From contig CAZRFU010000014.1 of assembly GCA_964599475.1 (NCBI GenBank), positions 9,121 to 73,120 of the forward strand: 64,000 nucleotides of DNA, written 5' to 3'. A program made the translations under genes and the position numbers. This document shows, in pieces, positions 5,884-50,000 of this stretch. The notes beneath the pieces are model-generated. The model ran no database searches. It saw only the letters and a program-made list of their open reading frames with translations, and was not told the origin of the DNA. This DNA is from an uncultured Thermoanaerobaculia bacterium. Its GTDB lineage: Bacteria; Acidobacteriota; Thermoanaerobaculia; Multivoradales; CAZRFU01. How positions within the stretch are numbered: position 1 is the stretch's first letter; every line of letters begins with the position of its first letter.

Positions 5884-5974
5884 CGCGGCAGTTTAGTTCC
5901 AAACCCGCTACCGACGGCCGGGCGAAGCGCAGCCGCATCGGGTCCGGCCTTGATACGCTCCCTTCGGAGCCACC

Positions 5975-8348: not shown

Positions 8349-9478
8349 GGCCCTTTGCCCTCGTCCTTCCCTCCTTGCGCGGAGGCGGCGCCGAGCGCAA
8401 CACGTTGACTCTGGCACGACTCCTCGTCGAAGCCGGTCGTCCGGTCCATCTCGTCGTCGTCGACCCGCGCGGCGAGCTCGCTTCGGTGCTCCCGCCCGGC
8501 GTTCACCTGGTCCCCGTCGTTTCGGTTCCTGCCGCCGCTGACGCCGCGCCGCTCCGCGTGCGTTCAGCGGTTCCCGGCTTGCTTCGGTATCTTCGCGAGA
8601 CCAAGCCAGCGGTGGTCTGGTCGACCTTTGCACACACGCATGTTCTGCTCGTTGCCGCCACCAGGCTTCTCGGCCTCGACTCGCGTGTGGTCTTGCGACT
8701 GGGAACGAGCCTCGAGAAGACCAGTAGCGCACTGATACGCCGGCTCTTGCCCATGGCCCTCGAGCGCGGCCATGTGGTGTTCGCCAACTGCGCCGCCATC
8801 GCCCGAGAAGCCGAGACGGCCACGGGATGGCCGCCCGGAACGGTTCGGGTCGTCCCGAATCTTCTCGACCTCGAAGCACTCGACGCGGCCGCGCTGGCCA
8901 CGCCGGCCCCCAGCGGACTACCTGCCGGAGACGGCCCGCTCGTCGTGTGCGCCGGCAGGCTGGTCGAACAGAAGGACCCCCTGATGGCGTTCGCCGCGTT
9001 CGCTGCGCTCGAACGTGCCGACGTGCGACTGGTCTTTGCAGGCGTCGGTCCACTGCGCGCCGAGCTCGAGCGGATGATCGCCCGCAGCTGGGTGCGCGAC
9101 CGGGTCGCGGTCCTGGGCTTTCGAACCGACCTCCCAGCACTCCTTCGCTCTGCTGTCTGCCTCCTGCTGGCTTCGCGACACGAAGGCCTCGCCAACGTTC
9201 TGCTCGAAGCCTTGGCTCTTGGCTGCACCCCGGTCGTGACCGCCCACTTCGGCGGTTCAGCCGAGCTGCTGGATAGCGGCAGGTACGGGTACATCGCCAA
9301 TCGGCCGACCGCGGACGGGCTCGCCGACGCGCTGGCTCGCGCGCTCGCAGCCCCAATCGAACCGCACCTGCTGCGGGAACGTGCGGTGAAGATGGGTCTT
9401 GCCGAGACCTGGACCCACTATCAGCAGCTGCTGGAGCCCCTTGGGCATCCCGGCGACGAGGACGAACCGGCGTCATGA
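8345..9478 (+). CDS. Glycosyltransferase family 4 (GT-B, group 1)
   Basis: GT4 C-terminal EX7E-type region (VVCAGRLVEQKDP...). Start overlaps the sulfotransferase stop (ATGA). Confidence 0.85.
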   Translation: MRPFALVLPSLRGGGAERNTLTLARLLVEAGRPVHLVVVDPRGELASVLPPGVHLVPVVSVPAAADAAPLRVRSAVPGLLRYLRETKPAVVWSTFAHTHVLLVAATRLLGLDSRVVLRLGTSLEKTSSALIRRLLPMALERGHVVFANCAAIAREAETATGWPPGTVRVVPNLLDLEALDAAALATPAPSGLPAGDGPLVVCAGRLVEQKDPLMAFAAFAALERADVRLVFAGVGPLRAELERMIARSWVRDRVAVLGFRTDLPALLRSAVCLLLASRHEGLANVLLEALALGCTPVVTAHFGGSAELLDSGRYGYIANRPTADGLADALARALAAPIEPHLLRERAVKMGLAETWTHYQQLLEPLGHPGDEDEPAS

Positions 9479-10644
9479 CCACACCGGTTGCGCCAGATGC
9501 TGTCCTCCGGCCACGACTGACGCTGCTCGTGACGGGGCTTGCGCTGGGTGGAGCCGAGCGTTGGTTGGCCTGCCTCGCGATCGAGTTGCAGCGTCGCGGC
9601 TGGAATCCCGATGTTCTGGCACTGTTGCCGGGCGGCCCCTTGGTGGACGAGCTCCGGGCTGCCGGAGTGGCGGTCGCGACTCTCGGTATGGCACGAGGTC
9701 GAGCGAGCGCGCTCGCCTTGGCACGGTATGTCGGCCATCTGCGACGGCGCCGCCCGGCGATCGTCCACTCGACGATGTACCACGCCAATCTCTTGGCCCG
9801 GGTCGGGCGAACCTTTGCGCCCCGACACCTCCTAGTCAACACCATCCAAAACTCGTATGAGGGCGGTCGCGTGCGTGAGCTCGCTCTGCGCGCTACGGAT
9901 CCCCTGGTGGAGCGTGTCGTCCAAGTGAGTCGCGACGGTGCTCGCCGCTACGCCAGCAAGAAGCTGGTTGGGCATTCGAAGCTCCTGGTCCTGCCAAACT
10001 GCGTCGACTGCGAGCGGTTTCGCGCGGATGCCAACAGCCGCGAGGCGGTCCGGCGCGAGGTCGGCGTGGCACAGGGAACCTGTGTGGTGCTGATGGTTGC
10101 CCGATTCGTCGACCAGAAGGACCATGCCACCGTCATTCGGGCTGTGGCCGAGCTCGATCGCGGCGGCGAAGACTTCGAGCTCTGGCTGCTCGGTGCCGGG
10201 CCCCTGCGGTCGAGTGTCGAAGCTGCCGTTGCGGCGCACGGTCTCGAGCGCAGGGTTCGATTTCTCGGCGAGCGCGCAGATGTCGAGCGGATCTATTGCG
10301 GTGCGGACATTCTGACTCTGGCATCGCACTGGGAAGGCCTTCCGTTGTGCGTGCTCGAGGGTGGCGCCACCGGCCTCCCTCTCGTCGCCGCAGCGGTCCC
10401 AGGGTCCGACGAGTGGTTTGGTGGTGCAGCCGCGCCCGGCTGTTTTCTTTTCCCGCCCGGCGACGCCGAGGCCTTGTCTCGCTCGTTGGCGCGCTTGATG
10501 GGCAACCGTGCCTTGCGCGAGCAGGCAGGCCACAGTCTGCGTCACCTGGTGCTCGAACACCGCAGCCACCTCAGCGCCGCATCGAGCTGGGAGGACCTCT
10601 ATCGCCAGCTGCTTTCCCCACCGGCCCAAGGAGAGCGGAGGTGA
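9475..10644 (+). CDS. Glycosyltransferase family 4
   Basis: LVTGLALGGAERW N-terminus, MVARFVDQKDH and a C-terminal glycosyl-transferase group 1 signature. ATGA overlap with the upstream GT4. Confidence 0.85.
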   Translation: MTTPVAPDAVLRPRLTLLVTGLALGGAERWLACLAIELQRRGWNPDVLALLPGGPLVDELRAAGVAVATLGMARGRASALALARYVGHLRRRRPAIVHSTMYHANLLARVGRTFAPRHLLVNTIQNSYEGGRVRELALRATDPLVERVVQVSRDGARRYASKKLVGHSKLLVLPNCVDCERFRADANSREAVRREVGVAQGTCVVLMVARFVDQKDHATVIRAVAELDRGGEDFELWLLGAGPLRSSVEAAVAAHGLERRVRFLGERADVERIYCGADILTLASHWEGLPLCVLEGGATGLPLVAAAVPGSDEWFGGAAAPGCFLFPPGDAEALSRSLARLMGNRALREQAGHSLRHLVLEHRSHLSAASSWEDLYRQLLSPPAQGERR

Positions 10645-25383: not shown

Positions 25384-26403
25384 ATGCGTCTGCTCACCGG
25401 CGATGCTCGTGACGACGACCAGGACGTCGAACGGTCTCTGAGGCCCAACCGCCTCGAGGACTATGTCGGCCAAAAGCGGATCGTCGACAACCTGCGGGTG
25501 TTCATGGCGGCTGCGCGCGAACGTGGCGAGAGCCTCGATCACGTGCTGCTGTTCGGCCCCCCGGGTCTCGGCAAGACCACGCTGGCCCACCTGGTCGCAC
25601 GCGAGATGGGCACCTCGATCCGTACCACCGCCGGACCGGTGATCGAGCGCGCCGGCGACCTCGCCGCAATCCTCACCAATCTCGAGCCCGGCGAGGTGTT
25701 GTTCATCGACGAGATCCACCGCCTCGGCCCGGCGGTCGAGGAGATCCTCTACCCCGCGCTCGAGGACTACAAGCTCGACCTGGTGATCGGCCAAGGGCCC
25801 GCCGCGCGTACCGTCACCATCGAGCTGCCGCGTTTTACCTTGGTGGGTGCCACCACCCGCGCCGGGCTGGTGACGGCGCCGCTGCGCGCCCGCTTCGGCA
25901 TCGTGCACCGGCTCGAGCTCTACCAGCCCCAGGAGCTCGCCCAGATCATCGCCCGTTCGGCCAGGATCCTCGGCGTCGAGGCCGACGAGGAGGGCTGCCT
26001 CGAGATCGCTCGCCGCAGCCGCGGCACCCCCCGCATCGCCAACCGACTGTTGCGGCGGGTGCGCGACATCACCCAGGTCCTCGGCACGGGCTCGATCGAT
26101 GCGCAGCAGGCTCGGCACGGTCTCGGCCTGCTCGAGGTCGACGACTATGGTTTCGACGAAGTCGACCGGCGCCTGCTGACGGTGCTGATCGACCACTACG
26201 ACGGCGGTCCGGCCGGGATCACCGCCCTCGCCGCGGCGATCGGCGAGGACCGCGGCACACTCGAGGATCTCTACGAGCCGTACCTCATCCAGGAAGGCTT
26301 TCTCAAGCGCACGCCACGGGGGCGTATGGCCACCAGACGTGCCTACCTGCACCTCGGCATCGAGCCTCGCGCGCCCGAGGACTCTCAGTCCTCACTCTTC
26401 TGA
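25384..26403 (+). CDS. ruvB: Holliday junction DNA helicase RuvB
   Basis: Walker [12 protein letters not shown], Walker [10 protein letters not shown] and a winged-helix C-terminus. Confidence 0.95.
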
Positions 26404-28388
26404 TCGTTCGTCACCACCAGCAGCGCCGGTAGCAAGAAGAGGTCAGCTACTACCGCCAGAGCGATTGCCGCCGCCGCCAGCGCGCCGAAGCGCGCAGTCG
26501 GCAGGAACTGCGAGAAGCCACATACGGCGAACCCCAGCACCAGCACCAGGCCGGTGAGAAGGAAGGCGGGAGTGGTGGCGGCAACCGACTCGGTCACCGC
26601 GGCCCTGAGCGGCATCTGCCGACGGCGCTGTCGCACTCCAGCGAGCAGATGGAGGCTGTCGTCGACGGCGATGCCCAAGACCACCGCACCGACCAGAACC
26701 GTGGCGACATCGAGGGGGATCCCAAACCACCCCATGGCGCCGAGCACCAGGACCACCGGCCACACGTTGGGCGCGAGAGCGATCAACGCCATCCTCAGCT
26801 GCCCGAGCAGGACCCACAGGAGCAGGGCGATGGTGACGACACTGAGCACCAGCGAGAGTCCCAGGGTTTCCAGCAGCCGACGCTGCGTTTCGAGCAGCTC
26901 GACGTAGGTTCCCGTGAGCTCGGCTTCGAGACCGAGCGCGCCGGCAGCAGCGAGCGCCCCGCGGCGCAACTCGTCCAGCTCTGTCACCCCTCCGGTGGGA
27001 ATGCTCACCAGCACCCGGGCCAGTCGAGCGTCGCTTCGCCACCACAGCGCCGCGGCAAGGTGGTGGCCGAGAGGATCGAGGAGGGGATGGGGCAGGGTGC
27101 CTGGTCCGGCCACGGCGAATACTCCCGGCAGGCGAGCGAGACGGCGTTCGAGGTCAGCCAGCTTCGGAAGGTCGAGCGCGGGTCCGGTTTCGATCAGCAG
27201 CTGGACTGCAGCCACGCCCAGTCGGCGCTCTTCGAGCTCGGCGACCGCTGCTCGCACCGGGTGATCGGCCTCGAGGTAGCGCATCGCGTCACTCTCGACC
27301 CGCAGCCGCGGCATTGCGAGAGCCGCGAGGATCGCGAGCGCGCCGGCCAGCGCGATGACCAGGCGCGGCTGACCGACAACGCGCCGCGCGACCGCCCGGC
27401 CAGTCCGTTGGGCGGTGAGGTCGAAGCGGCGCTCCGCCGTGCCGATTCGTTGTTTCGCCTGACGGCCGACCAGCCGTGGCAGGACCCACAAGCTCGCCAT
27501 CGTCAGCAGCGCCATACCACCGGCGGCGGCCAACCCGAGCCGGGCCACCGGTGCCACCGGCGCCACCGACAACGACAGAAACCCCATCATCGTCGTCAGG
27601 CCGCTCCACACCACCGCCCACCGCAGCTCCCGCCAGGTGGTTTCGATCGGCTCGGGGGTGTCGCCGCTGGTCTGGTGCTCGCGCCAGCGAAGCAGCAGGT
27701 GAAGGCTGGTGGCGACGCTCATGGCAAACAGGAGCGGCGGCAGGACCGCCAACACCAGGTCGAGCTCGACGCCAAGCCAACCGAGACTCCCGAAGGTCAG
27801 TCCGAGCACCGCTGCAACCACCACGAGCACGCTGAGCAGGTGGCGGCCCAGACACCACCACAACAGCCCGAACGCAATCGCGATCAGGCCCGGCAGCTCG
27901 CGGGAGACGACCTCGCGGGAGGCGGCGTCGAGGGCCGTGTCGAGCTCGGGAAGCCCGGCGCGCAGCACCCGCAATCCCGGCGGTGGCCGCTCAGCCGCCA
28001 GCAGGGCGTCGATCTCGAGGTGGCGCGCCCTTCGAGCCGCGGGATCGAGGGGAGCCAGGACGATCATGAGCGAGGACGCACCCGGCTGCTCCAGCACCGG
28101 GCGCAGGGCGGCCGGTGCCCGCTCGGCGGGTCCGAGCACCGCCACCACACCTCGGATCTGCGCCAGCTCGTCGGCGCGCGCGCTCAACCACTGCTCGGCT
28201 GCTTCGCCGGTCGCCTCCTCGCCCAGCACCACCAGCCGGCTGGCGTCATCCGGGCCGAAGCTCTGGAGCAGTCGGCCGTATGCCGGGCGGGGATCGGAAA
28301 TGAAGCGCTGCGGCGAGTTGTCGATCTCGAGCCGGGCGACGCCTACCGAGACGATCACCACCAGCGCGATGGCGACAATACCCTTCAC
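26385..28388 (-). CDS. MMPL/RND-family exporter (HpnN-like), GTG start; last gene of the type III PKS operon
   Basis: Twelve-TM topology with two periplasmic loops (TM1 [15 protein letters not shown], second half TM7 [17 protein letters not shown]), about 668 aa. The upstream 397 codons of ORF 26385..29579 are Arg-rich shadow. GTGA overlap with the upstream gene. Confidence 0.8.
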
Positions 28389-29476
28389 CCCGGACTCCGC
28401 AGGAGGCCGATCACCAGTCTCGCCAAGTCCGCCGACCGCGGTCGGCGGCCTTCGACGTGCGCTGCCAGCAGTCCGGTGAACGTGCCGGGATCGCGGGCCA
28501 GACCGGCGAGGGCGCGGCGGCGCAATGCCGGACGCCTGGCGGTCGCCAGCCACAATCGCGCGGCGAGATCGGCACGCCGCGTCGCCGCCGCCACCCAGCG
28601 GTCGTATCCTCCGAGATCGTCGCTTTCGAGGGCTGCGGCCAACAACTCGATCTGGTGGAGCCCGAGGGAAATCCCCTCGCCGGTGATCGCGTCGAGATAG
28701 CCGGCGGCGTCGCCGATCAGCACCACCCGTCCAGCGACGCGGCGATGAACGCGTTGCTCGAGCGGCCCGGTTCCCAGCACCGGGCCCACTCTTTCGGCTC
28801 CCCTCAGGCGCTGTGCCAGTTCCGGAAAGGTCTGCAACCGCTCTTCGAAGCGCAGCGGTTGAACATCGCTGAGCAGGGCGACTCCGACGGTATCGGCCGC
28901 GAGCGGCGTGATGTAGGCCTCGGTGCGGGCGCCCCACCACACTTCGACGCGGTCGTCCAGGGGGGCGAGGCGAAAGTGCGCGCGGACCCCGAAGCGTTCG
29001 AGGGCTCGGGCCGGCCGCGCGAGTCGCACTTGGTGGCGCAGCCGCGAGCGCAGGCCGTCGGCGGCCACGACCAGATCGAAGCGCTCCGTCCCGCCCGCGG
29101 TTTCGAGATCTCCAGCGGGTGTGGCGCGCTCGACCCTCTGCCCCCACCGCAGCACCACTCCTTGCTGAGAAGCTTTGGCGACGAGCTGGTGGTGGAGCTC
29201 GAGGCGTCGGACGCCACGGCCGGAGCCTGCCGGAAACGGTGCATCGACGACCAGAGCCGGGGCGCGATAGCGGATTCCGCCCAGGTGATGCCCGGCAGGT
29301 TCGACGCCGAGTGCCGTCAGACGCGCCCAACCATCGGGAAGGATCCCCTCGCCGCAGGGCTTGTCGAAGGGAGGTCGACGCGCCTCGAAGACCTCGACCT
29401 CGGCGCCTCGCTGGCTCAGGGTGATCGCTGTCGCCAGACCAATTGGACCGCCCCCTACGACCGCGATGCGTTTCAC
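28385..29476 (-). CDS. FAD-dependent oxidoreductase, geranylgeranyl reductase (GGR/FixC-like) family
   Basis: Rossmann GXGXXG IAVVGGGPIGLA, FDKPCGEGI motif and a C-terminal GDAAGYLDAITGEGI motif. GTGA overlaps at both ends. Confidence 0.8.
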   Translation of the reverse strand: MKRIAVVGGGPIGLATAITLSQRGAEVEVFEARRPPFDKPCGEGILPDGWARLTALGVEPAGHHLGGIRYRAPALVVDAPFPAGSGRGVRRLELHHQLVAKASQQGVVLRWGQRVERATPAGDLETAGGTERFDLVVAADGLRSRLRHQVRLARPARALERFGVRAHFRLAPLDDRVEVWWGARTEAYITPLAADTVGVALLSDVQPLRFEERLQTFPELAQRLRGAERVGPVLGTGPLEQRVHRRVAGRVVLIGDAAGYLDAITGEGISLGLHQIELLAAALESDDLGGYDRWVAAATRRADLAARLWLATARRPALRRRALAGLARDPGTFTGLLAAHVEGRRPRSADLARLVIGLLRSPG

Positions 29477-31104
29477 CGTTCGGCCTCGACCTGCAGTCGC
29501 GGCAGCTGGCCGGCCTCCCAGCGTCGACGCGCTTCGGCACGCCGCAGCTTGCCGGACGTTGTCCGCGGCAACCCACCAACCTCGAGCAGGACCACCGCTG
29601 CCGGTCGGATCCCCGCAGCGCTCAGCACTGCCGCCTCGATGACCCCGAACGTCGGCCGATCTGTGCCGGCCTCGATCGCGACGACCACCCGCTCGGCGCC
29701 GCCATCCGCGTGAGCACCGAAGGCAGCCACCCGATGGCGATCCAGCCCTGCGGCGGTAGCGACGGCGGCCTCGACCGTCGCGGGATCGAGGTTGCGCCCG
29801 TTGATGATCAAGATGTCCTTGTCCCGACCGACCAGGTGCAGCTCGCCGTGCGCGAGGAAGCCCAGGTCTCCGGTGTCGAGCCAGCCATCGACCAATGTCG
29901 CGGCGGTCGCGGCGGGTGCCCCTTCGTAACCCGACATCACGGCGGGGCCGGCCACCCACACACGGCCTTCTCGCCCCGGCTCGACGGCCACTCCGGCCGC
30001 ATCGCGGATTTCGATGGCGACTCCGGGAACCGGAGTGCCAAGGCACACGGCCTCTCCCGCGGCCTGGCTGCTGGTCGTTCCCGGGCGCGGGCAGGTCCGG
30101 GGTCCGGCCCGACGCGGCGAAAAGCTCACCGCCAGGGTCGCCTCGGCCAGACCATAAACCGGCATCATCGCCTCGGCATCGAAGCCCCAGCGGGCAAAAC
30201 GACGGACGAAGTCGCGGGCCGCCGCGACGTCGATCGGCTCCGCACCGTTGAGGGCAAAGCGCCACGAGGAAAGGTCTACACCTTCGAGCTCGTGATCGCG
30301 AATGACCCGGCATGCGTGGGCGTAACCGAAGCTCGGAGCCGCAGAAATCGCTGCTCGATAGCGGGAGATGGCACGCAGCCACAGGGCCGGGCGGGCGAGG
30401 AAGTGCTCCGGCTCGAGCAGGGTTACGGTTCCAGGACGCTCGAGGGCGGTCATCAGCGCACCCACCAAACCCATGTCGTGGAACATCGGCAACCAGCTGA
30501 CGCCACACGGGCTCGGATGGTTTGGCTGCGGCGGCCAGAAGCCATTGAGCATCCGGGCTTGGGCCACCAGGGCTCGGTGGGGCAACACCACACCTTTGGG
30601 AGCCGCAGTTGATCCCGATGAGAACTGGATCAGCGCCGGACTCTCCGGATCCGGAGCGGATCCAGGTAGGCCATCGGAGCCGGCGGCTTCGAGCTCCTCG
30701 ACCGCCAGTACCGGCAGGGGCGCCACCAGTGCTGCCAGGCGCCGACCCCGGCGGGGCTCACACACCACCACCCTGGCCTGCGCCACCTCGAGACTGCGCC
30801 GCAGAGCCTGCATCTGCTCGTCGATCGCGCCGAGCCTGTGGGGCGCGGCCACGGTCACCGGGACCGCCCCGGCGAGCATCACACCGAAGAAGGCGGCCGG
30901 AAACCACGGTTCGCTGCGCGCCACGACGCCGATGCGCGTTTGCGCCGTCACACCGAGGTGCCCCAAGCCTAGGGCCACCCGGCGCGCGCGGGCGACCACG
31001 TCCTGCCAGCTGCACCAGGTCGCGTCCTCGCTGCGGTCGACGAAGCGGATGCCGACCTCGGCCGCACCGGCCGCACGGTCGAGCAGGTCGACCACCGTGC
31101 TCAC
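29473..31104 (-). CDS. Fatty acyl-AMP ligase / AMP-dependent synthetase (FAAL-like)
   Basis: AMP-binding core FSSGSTAAPKGVVLPH, adenylation-domain motifs (YGLAEAT, GWLDTGDLG) and a C-terminal RTTSGKLRR. Confidence 0.85.
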   Translation of the reverse strand: MSTVVDLLDRAAGAAEVGIRFVDRSEDATWCSWQDVVARARRVALGLGHLGVTAQTRIGVVARSEPWFPAAFFGVMLAGAVPVTVAAPHRLGAIDEQMQALRRSLEVAQARVVVCEPRRGRRLAALVAPLPVLAVEELEAAGSDGLPGSAPDPESPALIQFSSGSTAAPKGVVLPHRALVAQARMLNGFWPPQPNHPSPCGVSWLPMFHDMGLVGALMTALERPGTVTLLEPEHFLARPALWLRAISRYRAAISAAPSFGYAHACRVIRDHELEGVDLSSWRFALNGAEPIDVAAARDFVRRFARWGFDAEAMMPVYGLAEATLAVSFSPRRAGPRTCPRPGTTSSQAAGEAVCLGTPVPGVAIEIRDAAGVAVEPGREGRVWVAGPAVMSGYEGAPAATAATLVDGWLDTGDLGFLAHGELHLVGRDKDILIINGRNLDPATVEAAVATAAGLDRHRVAAFGAHADGGAERVVVAIEAGTDRPTFGVIEAAVLSAAGIRPAAVVLLEVGGLPRTTSGKLRRAEARRRWEAGQLPRLQVEAER

Positions 31105-31340
31105 CGAGCGACCCGCTCCTGGATCACCGCGAGAAGCTCGCCCACGGTGACGATGGCCCCCTCGTCGAGGTCGTCGAGTCGGATCTGGAAGGCGTCTTCG
31201 ATCTCCACGGCCAGCGACAGGCGTTCGATCGAGTCGAGACGCAGGTCCTCCACCAACCGCAGGTGCGGCTCGAGTGGGGGTAGGTCGGCGCGCACGCGGC
31301 GCGCCAACGTCTCGATCTCGGTCATCAGCGCGTCGGTCAT
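31101..31340 (-). CDS. Acyl carrier protein (stand-alone, 79 aa)
   Basis: EDLRLDSIERLSL carries the DSL phosphopantetheine-attachment motif. It is the C-terminal 79 codons of ORF 31101..32090. ATGA overlap with the upstream methyltransferase stop. Confidence 0.8.
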   Translation of the reverse strand: MTDALMTEIETLARRVRADLPPLEPHLRLVEDLRLDSIERLSLAVEIEDAFQIRLDDLDEGAIVTVGELLAVIQERVAR

Positions 31341-31861
31341 GGCGCTGCGAGCCGGCGCATCGCGTCGTCCTCGACCCGCACCCTCACGAGCAGCAGCACT
31401 CCGTTGGCGACGGCGAACAGCACCGCCGTTCGCCAGGCTCCGCCGAGCAGCGGCAAGGCCAACAACTCGACCACCACCGCCAGGTAGTTGGGATGGCGCA
31501 CGAAACGGAAGGGTCCGGTGACGATCCTCCGGCTGCCGGGAACCCACAACACCCTGGTGGTCCAGCGGTCGCCGAGGGTTCGAATCACCCACCACCTGGT
31601 GGCGATCGTCGCAATCAGCGCCGCGGCTGCCGCGACCTGGACCACCGCCGGGACCGTTGGCCGCACCACCAACCCCTCGACGGCACAGGCACCAAGGAAC
31701 GCTGCGTGCAGCACCACCATCACCGGATAGTGTGCCGCACCGACCTCGATCGCGCCGGCGGCTCGCAGTGCAGCGGTGTTGCGGCTGGCCACCCTGAGCT
31801 CGACCAGGCGCAGCGCCACTGCGGCCAGCAGCACTGCCGCATACAGCTGCGGGGTCACCAT
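31337..31861 (-). CDS. ICMT/PEMT-family membrane methyltransferase (SrsB-like)
   Basis: GPFRFVRHPNYLAVVVELLALPLL is the signature of the isoprenylcysteine carboxyl / phospholipid methyltransferase family. Four to five TM helices. Confidence 0.8.
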   Translation of the reverse strand: MVTPQLYAAVLLAAVALRLVELRVASRNTAALRAAGAIEVGAAHYPVMVVLHAAFLGACAVEGLVVRPTVPAVVQVAAAAALIATIATRWWVIRTLGDRWTTRVLWVPGSRRIVTGPFRFVRHPNYLAVVVELLALPLLGGAWRTAVLFAVANGVLLLVRVRVEDDAMRRLAAP

Positions 31862-32913
31862 TCGAGCAGCACCAACTCGGAGCAGAAGCCTGGGCCCATT
31901 GCCAGCACCATGCCGCGACTGGCCGGAGCGGGAGGGTCGGCCAACACCTCCTCCAAGACCAGCAGCACCGAGGTCGACGAGACGTTGCCGACCTCACGCA
32001 GGCTGCGCCAGGTGCGTTCGAGCGCCGCGGCGGGCAGGTCGAGGGCTCGACCCATCGCCTCGAGCACCTTGGGTCCACCCGGGTGGGCAATCCACTCGGT
32101 GATGTCGCTGCGGTGATGGCCGTGGCGCATCAAGAGCCGGTCGACATCGTCGCCGAGGTGGCGTTCGGCCATCTCCGGAACGGCCGCCGACAAGACGATG
32201 GAGAAGCCCCGTTCCGAGATCTTCCAGCCCATGACCCCTTCGGTGTCAGGATACAACGTCGCCTGAGTGTCGACCACCCGCGCTCCTTGGATGCCCTCGC
32301 GCCGCGCCAGCGCCTCGCCGACCACCACCACGGCCGCGGCACCGTCGCCGAAGAGTCCGGTGGCGATGAGATTGGGGATCGACAGATCGTCGCGTTGCAG
32401 GGTCAAGGAGCACAGCTCGACCGACAGCAGCAACGCCGCCTCGTCCGGAAACGCACGAACGTAGTCGGCGGCCCGAGCCAGCCCCGCGGCTCCGGCGACA
32501 CACCCGAGGCCGAACAGGGGCAAGCGCTTGCAGTCTGGTCGAAAGGGCAGTCGGTTCATCACCCGTGCCTCGAGCGAAGGAGCAGCCAGTCCCGTGACAC
32601 TCGTGGAGATCATCAGGCCGACGTGCTCGAGCCCCAGCCCGGCTCGTTCGAGGGCTCGAGGAATCGCCTCGGTGGCGAGCGCCAAGCCGACTTCGAGCCA
32701 AACCTGGTTGGCTTCTCCAAAGCCCTGCAGCTCAGGGTAGCGCTCCAGCGGCAGCGCCAGGCGCCGGCCACCGACGAGGACGTTGCGGTGCAGACGTTCG
32801 AAGCGCTCGGCATTGAAGTGGCGCTGACCCCACACGTCGCGGAATGCGCCGATCAGCGCTTCCTGGTCGTAGGCATGTGGCGGCAGGGCGCTGGCGACCG
32901 CCGCCACTCTCAC
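31855..32913 (-). CDS. Type III polyketide synthase (chalcone/stilbene synthase family); GTG start with upstream GGAGAA SD
   Basis: Catalytic Cys in GCVAGAAGL, His in HPGGPKVLE and Asn in GNVSSTSV, plus FGDGAAAVVV. About 352 aa after trimming the Arg/Gly-rich 5' shadow. Confidence 0.85.
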   Translation of the reverse strand: MRVAAVASALPPHAYDQEALIGAFRDVWGQRHFNAERFERLHRNVLVGGRRLALPLERYPELQGFGEANQVWLEVGLALATEAIPRALERAGLGLEHVGLMISTSVTGLAAPSLEARVMNRLPFRPDCKRLPLFGLGCVAGAAGLARAADYVRAFPDEAALLLSVELCSLTLQRDDLSIPNLIATGLFGDGAAAVVVVGEALARREGIQGARVVDTQATLYPDTEGVMGWKISERGFSIVLSAAVPEMAERHLGDDVDRLLMRHGHHRSDITEWIAHPGGPKVLEAMGRALDLPAAALERTWRSLREVGNVSSTSVLLVLEEVLADPPAPASRGMVLAMGPGFCSELVLLEW

Positions 32914-33290
32914 CTCTGTTCTCCGCGCTCGCGCCGGAACAGCCACGCCAGCACCACCCCGACCAGGAGGTCCAGCAGGAGGCGATCGCGCACCAGCAGG
33001 GTCCAGTCGAGGCGCGGAGCAACTCCGAGTTGCACCAGCGACAGCGTCAGCAGCGGCCATCTCACGACCCACATGACCCCGCCGAGTACCAGGCCATCGA
33101 GCACGATACCGGCGCGGCCGACGGTGAGCCTGGCCACGACCACGAAGGCCAGCGCCTCGAGCAGCCAGGCCTGGAGTGCGATGGTGCGGCTACCCTCGAG
33201 CAGCAGGGTGGGGCGGCCGGCCCACGAGGCGACGAGCTCGCCGGCGGCGAGCAGGGCAAAGGTGATCGCAAGGCCGGCTGAGACCCTCAT
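32910..33290 (-). CDS. Small integral membrane protein (126 aa, about 4 TM), first or second gene of the T3PKS operon
   Basis: Hydrophobic helices MRVSAGLAITFALLAAGELV... from Met68 of ORF 32910..33491. GTGA overlap with the T3PKS start. Confidence 0.5.
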   Translation of the reverse strand: MRVSAGLAITFALLAAGELVASWAGRPTLLLEGSRTIALQAWLLEALAFVVVARLTVGRAGIVLDGLVLGGVMWVVRWPLLTLSLVQLGVAPRLDWTLLVRDRLLLDLLVGVVLAWLFRRERGEQR

Positions 33291-33294
33291 TCGG

Positions 33295-33975
33295 TCATGA
33301 TAGCCCGTGCTGTCCCAGGCGCCGTGCTCTGAGCCAAGGGGGCAGGAAGGTGACGTCCGGCAGGACCGTGAGCGGCTCGGCGGTTGCCAACCGCTCGACC
33401 AACTCGGCACCACTGCTGACGCCCACCGCCCCCACCCCGGCGTTGCGCGCCATTTCGAGATCCCACAACGAATCTCCCACCACGATGGCACGGTGATGCG
33501 GCACGGCGAGCTCGATGAGCAGTTCCTCGACCATCATCGGGTCGGGCTTGCTGCGGGTCTCCTCAGCGGTCCGCGTGGCCTCGAAGTGGGCGCCGAGGCC
33601 CAGGCGCTCGAGATCGCTGGCCAAGCCGCGCTTGCCCTTGGCGGTTGCGACCGCGAGCCGGTAGCCCAAGGCGCGCAACTCCTCCAGCAGCTGCGGTACC
33701 CCGGCAAAACTCGGTGATCCCAGGCCGAAGCGCGAGAACCAATGGTGCCGGTAGCGTTCGATCAGCTCCTGGCGACGATGTGGCTCGAACGTGGGCAGGA
33801 AGCGCCGCACCGTCTCGTCGAGGCCGAGGCCGATGGCGCCCCGAATCGATGCTGTCCCAGGGCTCTCGAGCCCGAGGTCGTCGAGTGCGGCTTCGGTACA
33901 GGCGACGATGGCACCGATCGAATCGATCAGCGTGCCGTCCCAGTCGAAGATGATCAGGTCGTAGGGTCGTTCCAT
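33295..33975 (-). CDS. HAD-superfamily hydrolase (phosphoglycolate phosphatase-like)
   Basis: Motif I DLIIFDWDGTL and motif IV GDSLWDLEMARNAGV. Lies 4 nt upstream of the small membrane protein. Confidence 0.85.
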   Translation of the reverse strand: MERPYDLIIFDWDGTLIDSIGAIVACTEAALDDLGLESPGTASIRGAIGLGLDETVRRFLPTFEPHRRQELIERYRHHWFSRFGLGSPSFAGVPQLLEELRALGYRLAVATAKGKRGLASDLERLGLGAHFEATRTAEETRSKPDPMMVEELLIELAVPHHRAIVVGDSLWDLEMARNAGVGAVGVSSGAELVERLATAEPLTVLPDVTFLPPWLRARRLGQHGLS

Positions 33976-40656: not shown

Positions 40657-43197
<2,541 letters not shown>

Positions 43198-43199
43198 GG

Positions 43200-45701
<2,502 letters not shown>

Positions 45702-45801: not shown

Positions 45802-46875
45802 TTAGGCCTCTTCGACACGGCCGCCGCGGAGCTTCCAGGTGCGCTCTCGCCGCAGACCCTCCCAGACCTCGGGGCGACTCGACGTGGCAAACAACTCGAG
45901 GTCGTCGGCGACCAGCGACCAGGCCGCCGCCAGCCTGCCCGGATCGAGCTCGGCGTCGGCATCGTCGAAGAGCACCAACGGCAGTCTCCCCCCGCGCGCG
46001 ATTACGCGGGCTCGCGCCAAGGTCAACATCCAGCCGCAGATTTTGCGTTCCCCGGCCGACGCGGCCGCAGCCACATCCGCTCCCTGCCACGAGATCACCA
46101 CCCGGTCGCGGTGGGCTCCGGCGAGGGATCGCTGCTGCTCGACCTCGCGGGACCGGATGCTCTCGAGGTGCACCAGCAGGTGTTCTTCGAGGGCGGCGTC
46201 CTCGAGGTCGGCGAGACCGACCGGGTTTGGTCGATAGGCGAGGTCGACGGCGGCGTCGATGCCGGCGCGTTCCACCATGGCCGCGAGCTCGCGGCGCACT
46301 AGCTCGAGGTGACGGCGGCGAGCGGCGACGAGCCCAGCTGCTTCATGGGCCAGAAGTGCGTCCCAGGCGGCGAGATCGCTGCCGCGGCGCAGCAGCACGC
46401 TGCGTTTGGCCGCCAGCACCTGACGGTACCGCGACAGATTTTCGATCAGGGTCGGCCGCTCGGCTACCACGCCTCGATCGAGGAAGCGACGCCGTGCCGC
46501 CGGGGCTCCGGCCAGGACTTCGCGGTCCGCCTCGCTGAAAGAGACCACCGGGAGCACGCCGAGATGGTCCGACAGGCTCGTCCGGGTTGCGTCGACCCGG
46601 CGTTCGAGGCCTTGGTCTCCGAACCCCACGCGCAGGGTACCGATCCTGGCGGCCTCGACCCTCGCCTCGAGATCGAAGCGGGGGGTACCGTGGCGGCGGC
46701 AGCGCGAGAGGTCACTGGTACGAAACGAACGGGTGGTCGCGACGACGTACATCGCCTCGATCAGACTGGTCTTGCCGGCACCATTGGGCCCGACGATCAG
46801 GTGTCGCCCCGGGCCCGGAGCAAACGGCGAGTCGTCCAGGTTGCGAAAGCCCCGCGCGTTCAGCTCCGCGATCAT
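45802..46875 (-). CDS. recF: DNA replication and repair protein RecF
   Basis: Walker A GPNGAGKTSLIEA and a C-terminal LFDDADAELD signature. Start trimmed to Met22. Confidence 0.9.
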   Translation of the reverse strand: MIAELNARGFRNLDDSPFAPGPGRHLIVGPNGAGKTSLIEAMYVVATTRSFRTSDLSRCRRHGTPRFDLEARVEAARIGTLRVGFGDQGLERRVDATRTSLSDHLGVLPVVSFSEADREVLAGAPAARRRFLDRGVVAERPTLIENLSRYRQVLAAKRSVLLRRGSDLAAWDALLAHEAAGLVAARRRHLELVRRELAAMVERAGIDAAVDLAYRPNPVGLADLEDAALEEHLLVHLESIRSREVEQQRSLAGAHRDRVVISWQGADVAAAASAGERKICGWMLTLARARVIARGGRLPLVLFDDADAELDPGRLAAAWSLVADDLELFATSSRPEVWEGLRRERTWKLRGGRVEEA

Positions 46876-46885
46876 GCCTCGGGGG

Positions 46886-47992
46886 TCATGCCCGCATCGG
46901 CATGACCACACACAACTGCCTCCACCCCTCGACTGCACTCTCCGGGCGTCCTACGCACTGGCTTTCGCTGTCCTGCAGCGCAAAGCGCACCCCAGGATCG
47001 TCGACCACCGCCAGGAACTGCCCGAGGTAGTCGGGGTTGAGGCCGAGCTGAATCTCCGGTCCCTGATAGTCGCACTCGACGGTTTCGATCGCGTCGCCGA
47101 GATCCGGGTTGGCGGCGGAAACCTCGACCTGCCCTTCCGAGAAAGTCAAACGCACCGCCCGACCCCGTTCTCCGGTCAGCAGGGCCACACGTTGAACGGC
47201 GGCAATCAGCGCCTGTCGATCGAGACGGGCTTCGTGCGACAGAGCCCGGGAAAGAACTCGCTCGTAGTCGGGGAAGTTCCCCTCGAGGACGCGGCAGGTC
47301 AGCTCGCGCGCGCCGATGCGAAAACTCAGGTGGTGCTCCGCCCGCCTGAAGAGGAACATCTCGCCGCCGTCGAGTTTCTGGATCTCACCCAGGGCCTTGC
47401 GCGGCACCAGGACTCCGGGTACTTCGGCGCTCGGGGCGGGATCGAGCGGAGCCGAAACGAACGCCAGCCGGTACCCGTCGGTGGCAGCCAACTCGATGCC
47501 GTCGAGTCGGACCTTCAGCAGGGCTCCGTTGAGCTGGAAGCGGGACTCTTCGGCCGAGATCGCGAAAATGGTCTTGCCGATGGCGGCCCTCAGCGTCGTC
47601 GCCGGAATGGCGATTTCGGAGGCTTCGTCCACGCTGGCGAGGGTAGGGAAGGTCCCGGGATCGGCGCCACGAATGCGAAAGCGGCTCCGGCCTGCTCGAA
47701 TGCGCAGGGTCTGGGGCTCTTCTTCGTCGAGCTGAACGGTCTCGGCCCCCAGTGCCCGAATGATCTCGGTCAGCTTGCGGGCGGCGATGGCTACCACCCC
47801 CGGCCGCCGCACTTCCGCTTCACACGAAGTCGACAGGGACACGTCGAGGTCGGTGCCGGCCAGTCGCAGCCGGCCGTCTGCCGCTTCGATGCGCAGGTGC
47901 GACAGGATCTGAATGGCAGCGCGGCGTTCGACGATGCCCTGCAACAGGGTCAGCTCGGCGAGGAGGTCGTCGCGGCGAATTGTGACGTCCAT
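46886..47992 (-). CDS. dnaN: DNA polymerase III beta sliding clamp
   Basis: Three-domain clamp. Synteny dnaA-dnaN-recF-gyrB. Confidence 0.9.
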   Translation of the reverse strand: MDVTIRRDDLLAELTLLQGIVERRAAIQILSHLRIEAADGRLRLAGTDLDVSLSTSCEAEVRRPGVVAIAARKLTEIIRALGAETVQLDEEEPQTLRIRAGRSRFRIRGADPGTFPTLASVDEASEIAIPATTLRAAIGKTIFAISAEESRFQLNGALLKVRLDGIELAATDGYRLAFVSAPLDPAPSAEVPGVLVPRKALGEIQKLDGGEMFLFRRAEHHLSFRIGARELTCRVLEGNFPDYERVLSRALSHEARLDRQALIAAVQRVALLTGERGRAVRLTFSEGQVEVSAANPDLGDAIETVECDYQGPEIQLGLNPDYLGQFLAVVDDPGVRFALQDSESQCVGRPESAVEGWRQLCVVMPMRA

Positions 47993-48219
47993 CAGAAAAC
48001 TCCGTCTTCTAGAGGGTCAGGATGGTACCACAGCAGTCGGTCACCGGATGCCCTGTGGAAACTGCGGAAAACCCTTGATCCATCTTCTCTTCAACGAGAT
48101 AGAGCTCAACAGGAGAGGCCATCGAGGGTGTGGAAAGTCTGCGGAGCCGAGTTGCGGATGGGTGGATCCGCAACGGTTCAGAAGGGGATCCACAGGGTTT
48201 CTCCGCAGGCTGTGGAAAA
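47993..48219. other. Candidate oriC: dnaA-dnaN intergenic DnaA-box cluster
   Basis: TGTGGAAAC (about 48054), TGTGGAAAG (about 48129), GGATCCACA (about 48187) and TGTGGAAAA (about 48211), plus a degenerate GGTGGATCC. A comparatively AT-rich stretch lies at about 48072-48118, and TTGCGGAT...ATCCGCAA is an inverted repeat. Confidence 0.55.
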
Positions 48220-49509
48220 TCAGGCGAGGAAGCGCTGGATCATGCGTTCGAGGGTCTGGTCGAACTCGCGGTCGGTCGAGCGCAGTTCCTCGATCTTCTC
48301 CACCGAGTACATCACCGTGGAGTGGTGTTTGCCGTTGAACTGCCGGCCGATTTCGGGGAAGGAGAGATTGGTGAGGCGCTTGCAGAGATACATCGCGACC
48401 TGGCGCGGAAAGGCGACCTGTTTGGCGTTGGAGCGACTCTTGAGCTCGCTGACCTTGAGGCCGTAGTGGCGAGCGACGAATTTTGCGATCTCGGCTGCCG
48501 AGGTTCGTCGCTCGCCGCCGGGGACGATGTCCTTGAGGGTCTCCTGAGCCAGATCGAGCGAGAGCGGGCGGCCGGTCAGCGAGGAGAAGGCGATGACCCG
48601 CGTGAGCAGCCCCTCGAGCTCACGCACGTTGGATCGCACCAGCTGGGCGAGGAACAAGGCCACCTCGTCCGGAAGGTCGAGGGCGTCGAGATCGGCCTTG
48701 CGACGCAGGATCGCGATCTTGGTCTCGAGGTCGGGAGGTTGGATGTCCGCGATCAGTCCCCACTCGAAACGACTCCGCAGGCGTTCCTCGAGGGTGGGAA
48801 TTTGCCGTGGCGAAGAATCGGAGGACAGGATGATCTGCTTTTGCGCGGTGTAGAGCGTGTTGAAGGTGTGAAAGAACTCTTCTTGCGTTCGTTCCTTGTT
48901 GGCGATGAACTGCACATCGTCGATCATCAGGACATCGATGGTGCGGTAGCGCTCGCGGAAGACCGGCATCCGCTCGAAACGAATCGAGTTGATCAGATCG
49001 TTGACGAACTGTTCAGCCGGCAGGTAGGCCACGGTCAGATGCGGATGGCGCTGGACGATGGCGTGGCCGATGGCGTGGAGCAGGTGGGTCTTGCCCAGGC
49101 CTACGCCGCCATACAGGAACAGTGGGTTGTAGGAGTGGGAAGGAGATTCGGCCACCGCTCGGGCGGCGGCGTGGGCAAACTGGTTGGAGGACCCGACGAC
49201 GAAGGAGTCGAAGACGTAGCGTGGGTTGAGCCCGGTAGCCAGCCCACGGGGGGTTTCCGCGGTGTCGTCTTCCTCCCGTGGGACGACGAGCTCGAGCTCG
49301 ACGCCGAGGTCGAGCTCGATGGATCGAACGATGTCGCCGTAGGAGCCTCTGAGGGTCGAGACGAAGGTGGCGTTTGGAGCGCCCACCTCGAGGCGCGAGC
49401 CGCGACTGCCGAGCAGGGTCAGCGGGCGCACCCACGTTGCCCACTCGTGGGGCTCGAGCTCCGACTGCAGGCGGTCGCGGAAGGTCGACCAGAGCGGGTG
49501 TATCGTCAT
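48220..49509 (-). CDS. dnaA: Chromosomal replication initiator DnaA
   Basis: AAA+ Walker A GGVGLGKTHLL and a C-terminal DNA-binding domain (QVAMYLCKRLTNLSFPEIG). Start trimmed to Met52. Confidence 0.95.
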   Translation of the reverse strand: MTIHPLWSTFRDRLQSELEPHEWATWVRPLTLLGSRGSRLEVGAPNATFVSTLRGSYGDIVRSIELDLGVELELVVPREEDDTAETPRGLATGLNPRYVFDSFVVGSSNQFAHAAARAVAESPSHSYNPLFLYGGVGLGKTHLLHAIGHAIVQRHPHLTVAYLPAEQFVNDLINSIRFERMPVFRERYRTIDVLMIDDVQFIANKERTQEEFFHTFNTLYTAQKQIILSSDSSPRQIPTLEERLRSRFEWGLIADIQPPDLETKIAILRRKADLDALDLPDEVALFLAQLVRSNVRELEGLLTRVIAFSSLTGRPLSLDLAQETLKDIVPGGERRTSAAEIAKFVARHYGLKVSELKSRSNAKQVAFPRQVAMYLCKRLTNLSFPEIGRQFNGKHHSTVMYSVEKIEELRSTDREFDQTLERMIQRFLA

Positions 49510-50000
49510 CGCGGCAAGTTGACTCGTCGGGCCCAGCTCCCAGGCCAGCAGGGTGAGTGGGACCGTAGAAGTTATCACGACGGCGAGCCTGTTCCAGGAA
49601 GTAGGGGAGACGTGTCGCGGTGAGAGTGGCACGGTGTTTGCTTCCTCGTCGAGGCAGAACACGGCCGCGAGGAGGTTTCGCTCGCCAGTTCTTTTCCCAT
49701 CCCATCAGGAGATTCGGATCTCCACCTCTCTACTCCCTTTCCCCATCCCCTGATTTCCCAGGGGTCGATTCCCACAGCCAACCCGAGCACGAGACCTCCT
49801 CCGCGCGCAACCCCCCGGAAACCCGGGGGGTTGTAGTGTTTATGGGAGAACCTCGGCGATCGGCCCTTCGACTCGCCGCGGCGCGGCGAAGGGAAGGATG
49901 ACGGGTAGATCATCGATGAGTGCCGGAATGTCGCGGCGATAGAGGCAAGCGGGCGAGCGGGCGAAGGTTTCGGCCAAATAGGCACGGCCAAGTTGACACG

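Follow-up and report, generated by a model that had tools for sequence, protein, structure and literature searches.

Eight minus-strand open reading frames, none with an internal stop, occupy positions 26385-33975 of the window (the whole 64,000-nucleotide stretch of uncultured Thermoanaerobaculia DNA that was analysed). In the direction of transcription they are:

33295-33975, minus strand: HAD-IA hydrolase, 226 aa, phosphoglycolate-phosphatase-like (Pfam HAD_2, 1.2e-33)
32910-33290, minus strand: 126-aa membrane protein with four predicted helices, its stop overlapping the next start (GTGA)
31855-32913, minus strand: type III polyketide synthase (PKS), 352 aa, GTG start (Chal_sti_synt_N and Chal_sti_synt_C)
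31337-31861, minus strand: ICMT/PEMT-family membrane methyltransferase, 174 aa, SrsB/FtpB-type (Pfam ICMT, 7.1e-25)
31101-31340, minus strand: stand-alone acyl carrier protein (ACP), 79 aa (PP-binding, 3.3e-5, above gathering)
29473-31104, minus strand: fatty acyl-AMP ligase (FAAL), 543 aa, FtpD-like (AMP-binding, 1.8e-59)
28385-29476, minus strand: FAD-dependent enzyme, 363 aa, SrsC/FtpE-type family (Pfam FAD_binding_3)
26385-28388, minus strand: RND-superfamily transporter, 667 aa, 12 TM, HAE3/HpnN-like (MMPL domain, PF03176)

The eight genes and the families that a sequence-only reading had given them are real. Counting only matches above gathering score, Pfam backs seven of the eight through HAD_2, Chal_sti_synt_N with Chal_sti_synt_C, ICMT, PP-binding, AMP-binding, FAD_binding_3 and MMPL. 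A metagenome relative (L003) keeps all eight genes with their order and overlaps, at 77-91% amino acid identity per gene. Comparison with this 87%-identical relative reveals purifying selection on every gene (dN/dS 0.10-0.18; 0.10 for the HAD gene, 0.16 for the 126-aa protein, 0.18 for the RND gene), and therefore none is a chance open reading frame of GC-rich sequence. The same reading described 4-nt GTGA/ATGA overlaps from the membrane protein onward, which holds for all junctions but one. GTGA joins the membrane protein to the PKS, the ACP to the FAAL, the FAAL to the flavoenzyme and the flavoenzyme to the RND gene, and ATGA joins the methyltransferase to the ACP. The PKS/methyltransferase junction reads ATGGTGA, an overlap of 7 nt if the start is ATG and 4 nt if it is GTG. 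The HAD gene is separated from the membrane protein gene by a 4-nt gap (TGAccgaATG). No promoter or terminator was identified at the locus; the operon may be co-transcribed. Its flanks hold housekeeping genes (ruvAB and a Glu/Leu dehydrogenase, with gyrA/gyrB further on).

Homology assigns the PKS to the Pks11/SrsA/FtpA clade of alkylresorcinol/alkylpyrone synthases. Its closest solved relative is Mycobacterium tuberculosis Pks11 (E 3e-101, full-length match), and it shares 53% identity with the synthase from a srs-type cluster in Streptomyces and 54-57% with genes of Myxococcaceae and Archangiaceae. The Cys, His and Asn motifs picked out earlier are present and align to Pks11 Cys138/His277/Asn310; this triad and Trp230 are invariant across an alignment of 14 PKS homologues. 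A FabH/KAS III identity was rejected: FabH models score far under cut-off, and both Chal_sti_synt domains stand above gathering. Trp230 lies in MGW(230)KIS, aligned with MGWDVG of Pks11, at the position of ArsB Trp281 and MMAR_2474 Trp230. Resorcinol formation in ArsB requires this Trp, which is conserved in FtpA, SrsA, PKS10 and PKS11 (PMC5916927).

The methyltransferase carries an RHPNY motif and is 53% identical to a PKS-adjoining ICMT-family gene on the Streptomyces plasmid NZ_CP108138.1. The ACP, matched by several NCBIfam ACP models, has an LDS(37)I phosphopantetheine-site motif and sits between methyltransferase and FAAL in most related loci too. For the ligase, the top NCBIfam model is 'fatty acyl-AMP ligase' (NF006624), at 379 bits under a 600-bit cut-off. 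The solved relatives ranked highest are FAALs or acyl-adenylating PKS/NRPS loading enzymes, among them E. coli FAAL 3pbk (6.5e-76), FadD23, FadD32 and FadD28, with plain CoA ligases well behind. Identity to the same-position gene in Myxococcota is 41-47%. Compared with E. coli FAAL, the window enzyme lacks 13 residues in the stretch at about 330-345 (query numbering), which should lie close to the FAAL-specific insertion.

The flavoenzyme forms one alignable family with the flavoenzymes of srs-type clusters, annotated as FAD-dependent monooxygenases, and is 45% identical to a member from a Streptomyces PKS-ICMT-flavoenzyme cluster and 43% to a Mycobacteriales one. Its most likely function is ring hydroxylation in an alkylquinone route. 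Flavin-dependent halogenases, its best fold matches, are marked by a WxWxIP motif and a catalytic Lys downstream of the GxGxxG/GES region. This function was rejected: by eye, the window sequence and the A2 consensus show VEVxW....EAYVTP instead of WxWxIP, and both lack the conserved Lys after the CGEG motif.

The combination of FAAL, ACP and flavoenzyme, put forward earlier as an undescribed arrangement, turns out to be established. Where a locus runs far enough downstream to be counted, the order PKS-ICMT-ACP-FAAL-flavoenzyme recurs colinearly: in 15 of 15 loci from Myxococcota, in 17 from Acidobacteriota and in two with doubtful labels. Loci of Corallococcus, Myxococcus, Archangium and Pyxidicoccus have the identical order. 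Both the ftp system and an acidobacterial copy have already been reported (PMC5707447, PMC5006271). The M. xanthus ftp cluster, whose product class is alkylresorcylic acid (PMC6836626), is described as a synthase, methyltransferase, AMP-dependent synthetase and monooxygenase (PMC5006271). Likened to the window through other Myxococcaceae loci and second-hand descriptions, it agrees with the window in all five functions and in their order; in Myxococcus sp. L035, identities to the window are 56% (PKS), 46% (ICMT), 38% (ACP), 46% (FAAL) and 44% (flavoenzyme). The further ftp members are presumably the methyltransferase FtpB, the ACP FtpC and the hydroxylase FtpE. FtpA is reported to take acyl-ACP made by the FAAL FtpD (PMC5707447, citing Hayashi et al. 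2011, ChemBioChem 12:2166), and acyl-group transfer has been shown for a M. xanthus FAAL-ACP pair (PMC8460268). By analogy with these accounts, the window may use the same starter route from FAAL to ACP to PKS. Unlike ftp, the window locus belongs to an Acidobacteriota host, nearly every junction is overlap-coupled, and the core has two extensions, a translationally coupled gene for a small membrane protein on its upstream side and, downstream, an HAE3/HpnN-like RND gene placed in-line. Neither extension was found in the 17 Myxococcota loci searched.

The tailoring logic is also that of srsABC in Streptomyces griseus and pkqABC in Mycobacterium smegmatis, three-gene operons as described, in which a methyltransferase and a hydroxylase turn alkylresorcinol into benzoquinone (PMC9927152). 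Three consecutive genes on a plasmid of Streptomyces sp. NBC_00184 match the window at 53% (PKS), 53% (ICMT) and 45% (flavoenzyme), and a Mycobacteriales locus (L073) has PKS, ICMT and the 43%-identical flavoenzyme. The window has more genes than these operons: no ACP or FAAL match was obtained in the srs/pkq-type loci L085 and L073, and the srs/pkq operons are without the RND and small membrane protein genes that the window has. Among Acidobacteriota, a 2016 study of 'Mor1', an associate of Moorea producens JHB, described, from antiSMASH output only, a type III PKS cluster that has sequence identity to the M. xanthus cluster for alkylresorcylic acid and the same ORF organisation (synthase, methyltransferase, AMP-dependent synthetase, monooxygenase); its product was not found (PMC5006271).

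The five-gene core is thus a known one, tied through ftp and srs to membrane phenolic lipids and quinones; the additions are a lipid-type exporter and the small membrane protein. The latter has no Pfam or NCBIfam family match. Against a local HMM trained on 11 upstream ORFs taken from other loci, it scores 31 bits (E 8e-12 in a one-sequence search), and the W-LEAL and W-x-R-x-PLL motifs are shared, placing it as a divergent member of an unannotated, PKS-adjoining Acidobacteriota family. This family adjoins the PKS in 23 of the 84 loci examined, all 23 from Acidobacteriota, and lies directly upstream on the PKS strand in 22; in the other (L011) it is on the opposite strand. Four helices appear in a low-confidence AF2 model. 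The protein is probably an Acidobacteriota-specific accessory, and one could guess at membrane docking or product handover as its role.

The transporter had been called MMPL/RND. The RND/MMPL type stands on Pfam (MMPL domain at 81.1 bits against 20.5 for gathering, in two stretches) and on topology, hydropathy giving 1+5 / 1+5 TM segments with two loops of roughly 150 aa. The MmpL name does not, with the mycobacterial-type model TIGR00833 at 73.7 against 874.7 bits. Judged by sequence, the protein is a divergent member of RND, with HAE3 and HpnN as its nearest subfamilies. These are the best named models for it and its in-line homologues (hopanoid export to the outer membrane for HpnN; the BstA sterol transporter), with scores far under the curated cut-offs (HAE3 TIGR00921, 141.1 against 351.9 bits; HpnN TIGR03480, 98.6 against 751.9). 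An RND fold, 12 TM segments and two periplasmic loops are common to both, and no solved structure was detectable by sequence search. A lipid exporter is probable, with a phenolic lipid or quinone as its putative cargo.

The earlier picture of a type III PKS phenolic-lipid operon that follows srsABC-like logic, takes its starter from a FAAL-ACP pair and is followed by an RND/MMPL-type transporter is supported, and by analogy the operon is likely to be an acidobacterial version of the ftp/srs pathway. We infer the substrates, product and export direction as follows. The FAAL would, by homology, adenylate a long-chain fatty acid and load the stand-alone ACP; the acyl-ACP would then serve as PKS starter, with three malonyl units added and aldol condensation giving an alkylresorcylic acid or alkylresorcinol. 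The membrane methyltransferase would O-methylate this product, a step that in its SrsB counterpart is a decarboxylative methylation. Ring hydroxylation by the SrsC-type flavoenzyme would yield an alkyl-methoxy-hydroquinone or benzoquinone, and the HAE3/HpnN-like RND protein would take the lipid from the inner membrane, probably toward the outer membrane.

Different chemistry could come from the same core. Long-chain alkylpyrones, formed by Pks11/Pks18-like lactonisation and, on the pattern of Bacillus BpsA/BpsB, methylated on the hydroxyl of the pyrone, are suggested by the deposition of Pks11, the closest solved structure, as an alpha-pyrone synthesis PKS, by the JGI name 'alkylresorcinol/alkylpyrone synthase' for homologues and by the production of both product types in vitro by many clade enzymes (PMC5916927). 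Such a product appears unlikely, however: the Trp linked to resorcinol formation (PMC5916927) is invariant in the PKS family, ICMT and SrsC-type flavoenzyme are the partner genes of a resorcinol-to-quinone route, and it is not obvious what a ring hydroxylase would do with a pyrone. A little less probable still is a flavoenzyme that saturates the alkyl chain or reduces the ring, so that the product would be a methylated phenolic lipid in reduced form. The invariant DK(A/P)CGEG motif of the family does resemble the GGR catalytic-Cys motif, but the GGR-type label first given to the enzyme fails at 102 bits against a cut-off of 158.8 (TIGR02032), and GGR is a more distant fold match than flavin halogenases and monooxygenases are.

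Whether the ftp/srs-type pathway extends over all eight genes is a separate matter. The HAD and RND genes might be unrelated neighbours in a compact genome, with five or six central genes making up the pathway, a reading that for the set as a whole carries a real but minor chance and is probably correct for the HAD gene. Among related loci, only L003/L004 and L005 have the HAD gene immediately upstream of the cluster. In L011, L012, L013, L017 and L025, homologues (46-51%) are found at an upstream distance of 6-8 kb, and in the three ORF-called loci (L013, L017, L025) opposite-strand ORFs separate them from the PKS. All NCBIfam equivalog matches of the HAD protein are far below cut-off. The HAD gene, first counted as part of the unit, thus sits in a conserved housekeeping block in relatives; it is probably co-transcribed with the cluster and likely to be a housekeeping neighbour and no pathway enzyme. 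For the RND gene, separateness is favoured by its absence in-line from most related loci (five have one, including L003), as it is for both genes by the housekeeping functions on the flanks. Against this, the flavoenzyme gene ends and the RND gene begins within one GTGA overlap, an arrangement conserved in L003. HAE3/HpnN-like RND genes are also embedded in four other acidobacterial clusters (L016, L018, L029 and L031) in differing positions and architectures, once between ACP and FAAL, which makes chance adjacency hard to argue.

The eight minus-strand genes between 26385 and 33975 are real, and their annotation is correct at the family level. The locus is an acidobacterial variant of the phenolic-lipid pathway represented by ftp in Myxococcus xanthus and by the srs/pkq alkylquinone operons of Streptomyces and Mycobacterium, to which two accessory membrane components are added. 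The following coordinates, like the start and stop codons and the junctions, come from direct reading of the sequence:

33295-33975, minus strand, HAD protein, 226 aa
32910-33290, minus strand, membrane protein, 126 aa
31855-32913, minus strand, type III PKS, 352 aa
31337-31861, minus strand, ICMT-family methyltransferase, 174 aa
31101-31340, minus strand, ACP, 79 aa
29473-31104, minus strand, FAAL, 543 aa
28385-29476, minus strand, flavoenzyme, 363 aa
26385-28388, minus strand, RND transporter, 667 aa

A gap of 4 nt separates the HAD and membrane protein genes, and each of the remaining six junctions is a GTGA or ATGA overlap; at the PKS/ICMT junction (ATGGTGA) the overlap is 7 or 4 nt, depending on which start is used. 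Long spurious ORFs are common in the window because its G+C content is ~68%. Seven of the eight proteins exceed the Pfam gathering score in their predicted families. In the metagenome relative L003 the same eight genes recur with the same overlaps, between a convergent ruvB and a divergent Glu/Leu dehydrogenase as in the window, and each of the eight gives a pairwise dN/dS in the range 0.10-0.18. The sequence-only reading, which had described eight genes coupled by overlaps from the membrane protein onward, is upheld. A promoter and terminator scan of the locus gave no promoter-like sites, and terminator-like sites at chance level only, none convincing. The 3' end of the RND gene overlaps the convergent ruvB (25384-26403, plus strand) by 19 nt (26385-26403), which leaves no space for a terminator between the two genes.

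Sequence comparison places the synthase among the true type III PKSs, in the clade of long-chain alkylresorcinol/alkylpyrone enzymes. Among solved structures, M. tuberculosis Pks11 is its closest relative (E 3e-101, aligned over the full length), with CylI next. The earlier identification of a Cys-His-Asn triad is confirmed: Cys138, His277, and Asn310 align to Pks11 and are invariant across 14 homologues, as is Trp230. Resorcinol formation by ArsB requires a Trp at this position, and FtpA, SrsA, PKS10, and PKS11 share it (PMC5916927). A FabH/KAS III identity is ruled out by FabH model scores far under their cut-offs, by the His-Asn spacing of the triad, and by the Pks11 alignment. The nearest solved relatives of the FAAL are the E. 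coli FAAL (6.5e-76), then FadD23, a Legionella enzyme, FadD32, and FadD28, that is, FAALs or acyl-adenylating PKS/NRPS loading enzymes, whereas plain CoA ligases match at 1e-28 or weaker. The best NCBIfam model, 'fatty acyl-AMP ligase', is under cut-off. The protein is 13 residues shorter than the E. coli FAAL within query residues ~330-345, which we take to lie near the FAAL-specific insertion. The ACP carries the motif LDS(37)I and the methyltransferase carries RHPNY.

The flavoenzyme is where the original annotation gives way. It had been called a geranylgeranyl reductase (GGR)-type enzyme, and its best NCBIfam model is indeed GG-red-SF, at a score under cut-off (102 vs 158.8 bits). GGR is not singled out by the fold comparison:

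Fold comparison of the flavoenzyme
Halogenase ChlB4, 38.4
Halogenase Bmp2, 37.0
3nix, 36.8
Squalene epoxidase, 36.0
GGR 3oz2, 33.3
Class A hydroxylases, about 33

The top matches would suggest a halogenase, but the WxWxIP and Lys motifs are absent by inspection and relatives of the enzyme sit in srs-type clusters. One alignable family of flavoenzymes spans Streptomyces, Mycobacteriales, Myxococcus, Archangium, Corallococcus, and Acidobacteria, with the motifs GGGPAGL, DK(A/P)CGEG, AADGxxS, EAYVTP, and GDAAGYxDAxTGEG in common. Within the flavoenzyme alignment, the Cys of DK(A/P)CGEG is invariant in SrsC/FtpE-type enzymes (residues 38-44 of the window protein); this motif resembles the catalytic-Cys motif of GGR. 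The srs/pkq flavoenzyme is described as a hydroxylase that converts methylated alkylresorcinol to benzoquinone (PMC9927152, PMC8086630). Given this description and the srs-type family context, the window flavoenzyme is read as a putative ring hydroxylase.

Gene order places the cluster among known pathways. The eight window proteins were compared by tblastn with 80 genome-scan loci, and loci were then classified by order. The 80 are the top-ranking of at least 593 matches in a scan that took a single genome for each GTDB species; the window's own species is absent from them, and their highest PKS identity is 64%. Within this best-80 set, 17 Acidobacteriota (L003 counted in) keep PKS-ICMT-(ACP)-FAAL-flavoenzyme in colinear order, as do all 15 Myxococcota loci that extend far enough downstream (Corallococcus, Myxococcus, Archangium, and Pyxidicoccus) and two loci of doubtful taxonomic label. 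A shorter form, PKS-ICMT-flavoenzyme, occurs in some Acidobacteriota and in one Mycobacteriales MAG (L073), and PKS-flavoenzyme in 14 Acidobacteriota loci of the same best 80, several labelled Terriglobales, Bryobacterales, or Acidobacteriaceae. The M. xanthus cluster comprises a synthase, a methyltransferase, an AMP-dependent synthetase, and a monooxygenase, an organization reported in 2016 to be shared by acidobacterium Mor1 (PMC5006271). FtpA takes acyl-ACP produced by the FAAL FtpD, according to a passage in PMC5707447 that cites Hayashi 2011; its product is alkylresorcylic acid (PMC6836626), and acyl transfer by a M. xanthus FAAL-ACP pair occurs in vitro (PMC8460268). A literature search for acidobacterial alkylresorcinol clusters or phenolic-lipid RND export returned genome-mining mentions only.

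Because the five-gene core is colinear in so many loci and matches the ftp papers, the proposal that a FAAL-ACP pair together with tailoring genes is a non-standard arrangement fails for that core; the novelty was overstated, since the ftp and srs/pkq papers already describe it. The locus is no new kind of system, and its new leads are modest. What emerges is that uncultured Acidobacteriota widely share, as a conserved module, a FAAL-ACP-primed type III PKS pathway that had been characterized once, in Myxococcus; their predicted membrane chemistry is one of long-chain alkylresorcinol-derived methoxyquinones. On a plasmid of Streptomyces sp. NBC_00184, genes for a type III PKS, an ICMT-family enzyme, and a protein annotated 'FAD-dependent monooxygenase' follow one another, and the products share 53%, 53%, and 45% identity with their window counterparts. 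Neighbors of this srs-type trio (L085; NZ_CP108138.1, 217590-223836) encode a UbiA-family prenyltransferase, a HAD-domain protein, two SAM methyltransferases, and a DoxX membrane protein; the whole may be a quinone cluster of greater complexity, possibly with a prenylated product.

The transporter annotation stands in part. An MMPL domain and a 12-TM, two-loop topology support an RND protein, and a mycobacterial-type MmpL is rejected by score (73.7 vs 874.7 bits). The nearest models are the lipid-transporter subfamilies HAE3 and HpnN-like, both well under cut-offs, and a sequence search detected no solved relative. Apart from L003, four further acidobacterial clusters carry HAE3/HpnN-like RND genes in-line:

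L018 and L031, after the flavoenzyme
L029, after the FAAL
L016 (Thermoanaerobaculia MAG), 4954-7185, between ACP and FAAL, inside the biosynthetic core

Recurrence at different positions argues for a functional link to the cluster, presumably lipid export, and the recurrent HpnN-like gene is a modest lead as a candidate phenolic-lipid exporter. In two Planctomycetota MAGs (L077, L083; ~3700-6000), distant homologues of the flavoenzyme (27-28%) and RND protein (29-31%) occur together, ~4 kb upstream of a type III PKS on the opposite strand; the ORF ending at the PKS start shows an ICMT/PEMT-like C-terminus.

The 126-aa membrane protein, which has no Pfam match, provides a second modest lead as a member of a small family tied to the PKS. 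Close relatives number three by word-index search and three by a full phmmer search against 1.84 billion representatives. In many acidobacterial loci a small hydrophobic ORF terminates at or just 5' of the PKS start, and the wider family was reached solely via a local HMM built from 11 such ORFs, against which the window protein scores 31 bits and shares the motifs W-LEAL and W-x-R-x-PLL. Among 84 loci, which include the best 80 of at least 593, this HMM finds the family in 23, all Acidobacteriota, and in no Myxococcota locus; 22 copies share the PKS strand and immediately precede the PKS, and the copy in L011 is on the opposite strand. Four family members gave nothing in Pfam at E<=10, and an AF2 model of the small protein is of low confidence (pLDDT 56, pTM 0.29). 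Members are hydrophobic, ~130-160 aa long, with the motifs W-LEAL and GWIAWVFRGPLL, and the window copy has four predicted helices. In full-length loci the ORFs fall at ~9300-10004, just upstream of the PKS; loci bearing the family include L001, L013, L014, L017, L021, L022, L025, L043, L045, L046, and L058. We can only guess at its role, perhaps docking at the membrane or passing on the product.

The HAD gene is best treated as a co-oriented housekeeping neighbor. Only the window lineage and L005 have it next to the cluster, and homologues (46-51% identical) lie 6-8 kb upstream in L011, L012, L013, L017, and L025. A 351-aa ORF, equal in size to the window NTP-transferase gene, immediately precedes the HAD ORF in L013 and L017, these ORFs being unannotated, and opposite-strand ORFs intervene between the HAD region and the PKS in L013, L017, and L025.

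Families, residues, order, coupling, and selection are observed features of the locus, and homology suggests the reaction steps. The FAAL would adenylate a long-chain fatty acid and load it onto the ACP; the PKS would add malonyl units and cyclize the chain to an alkylresorcylic acid or alkylresorcinol. The ICMT-type enzyme may then O-methylate the PKS product (SrsB methylation is decarboxylative, according to a title cited in PMC5916927), the flavoenzyme would hydroxylate the ring to give a hydroquinone or quinone, and the RND protein would export the lipid. Mycobacterial and Streptomyces polyketide quinones are proposed to act as auxiliary respiratory quinones (PMC9927152), and it is speculation that the product in this organism may be such a quinone or an envelope lipid. 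A more ambitious scheme, which we regard as unlikely, is that Thermoanaerobaculia-type Acidobacteriota extend ftp/srs into an envelope-lipid system: the four-helix protein, translationally coupled to the PKS, would receive or dock nascent lipid, and a dedicated HAE3/HpnN-like RND protein would carry an alkyl-methoxy-(hydro)quinone to the outer membrane, where the lipid might have a structural or redox function akin to that of cyst alkylresorcinols or mycobacterial polyketide quinones. If true, HpnN-like transporters would gain a new class of cargo, and the small protein would stand for a new family of accessory proteins.

The nearest PKS homologues come from metagenome-assembled genomes of Acidobacteriota and Thermoanaerobaculia (one 100% identical, one 87%, others <=73%, mostly 60-67%), and other Acidobacteriota hold the cluster in unrelated genomic contexts. 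Two loci labelled 'uncultured Enterobacterales' (L008, L049; PKS identity 57-61%) and several MAGs labelled Proteobacteria or Alphaproteobacteria, one with an isolate name containing 'MYXO', also carry it; these labels look like taxonomic mis-assignments. Housekeeping genes flank the window locus on both sides, with SurA-like PPIase, ruvA, and ruvB on one and Glu/Leu dehydrogenase, NTP-transferase, M20 peptidase, and a Rce1-like protein on the other, the latter followed by:

40657-43203, minus strand, gyrA
43200-45677, minus strand, gyrB
45802-46938, minus strand, recF
46886-47992, minus strand, dnaN
48220-49662, minus strand, dnaA

GC skew shifts from ~0 or negative to +0.13-0.16 at ~48 kb, and the chromosomal replication origin probably lies just upstream of dnaA, inside the window (~48000-50000).
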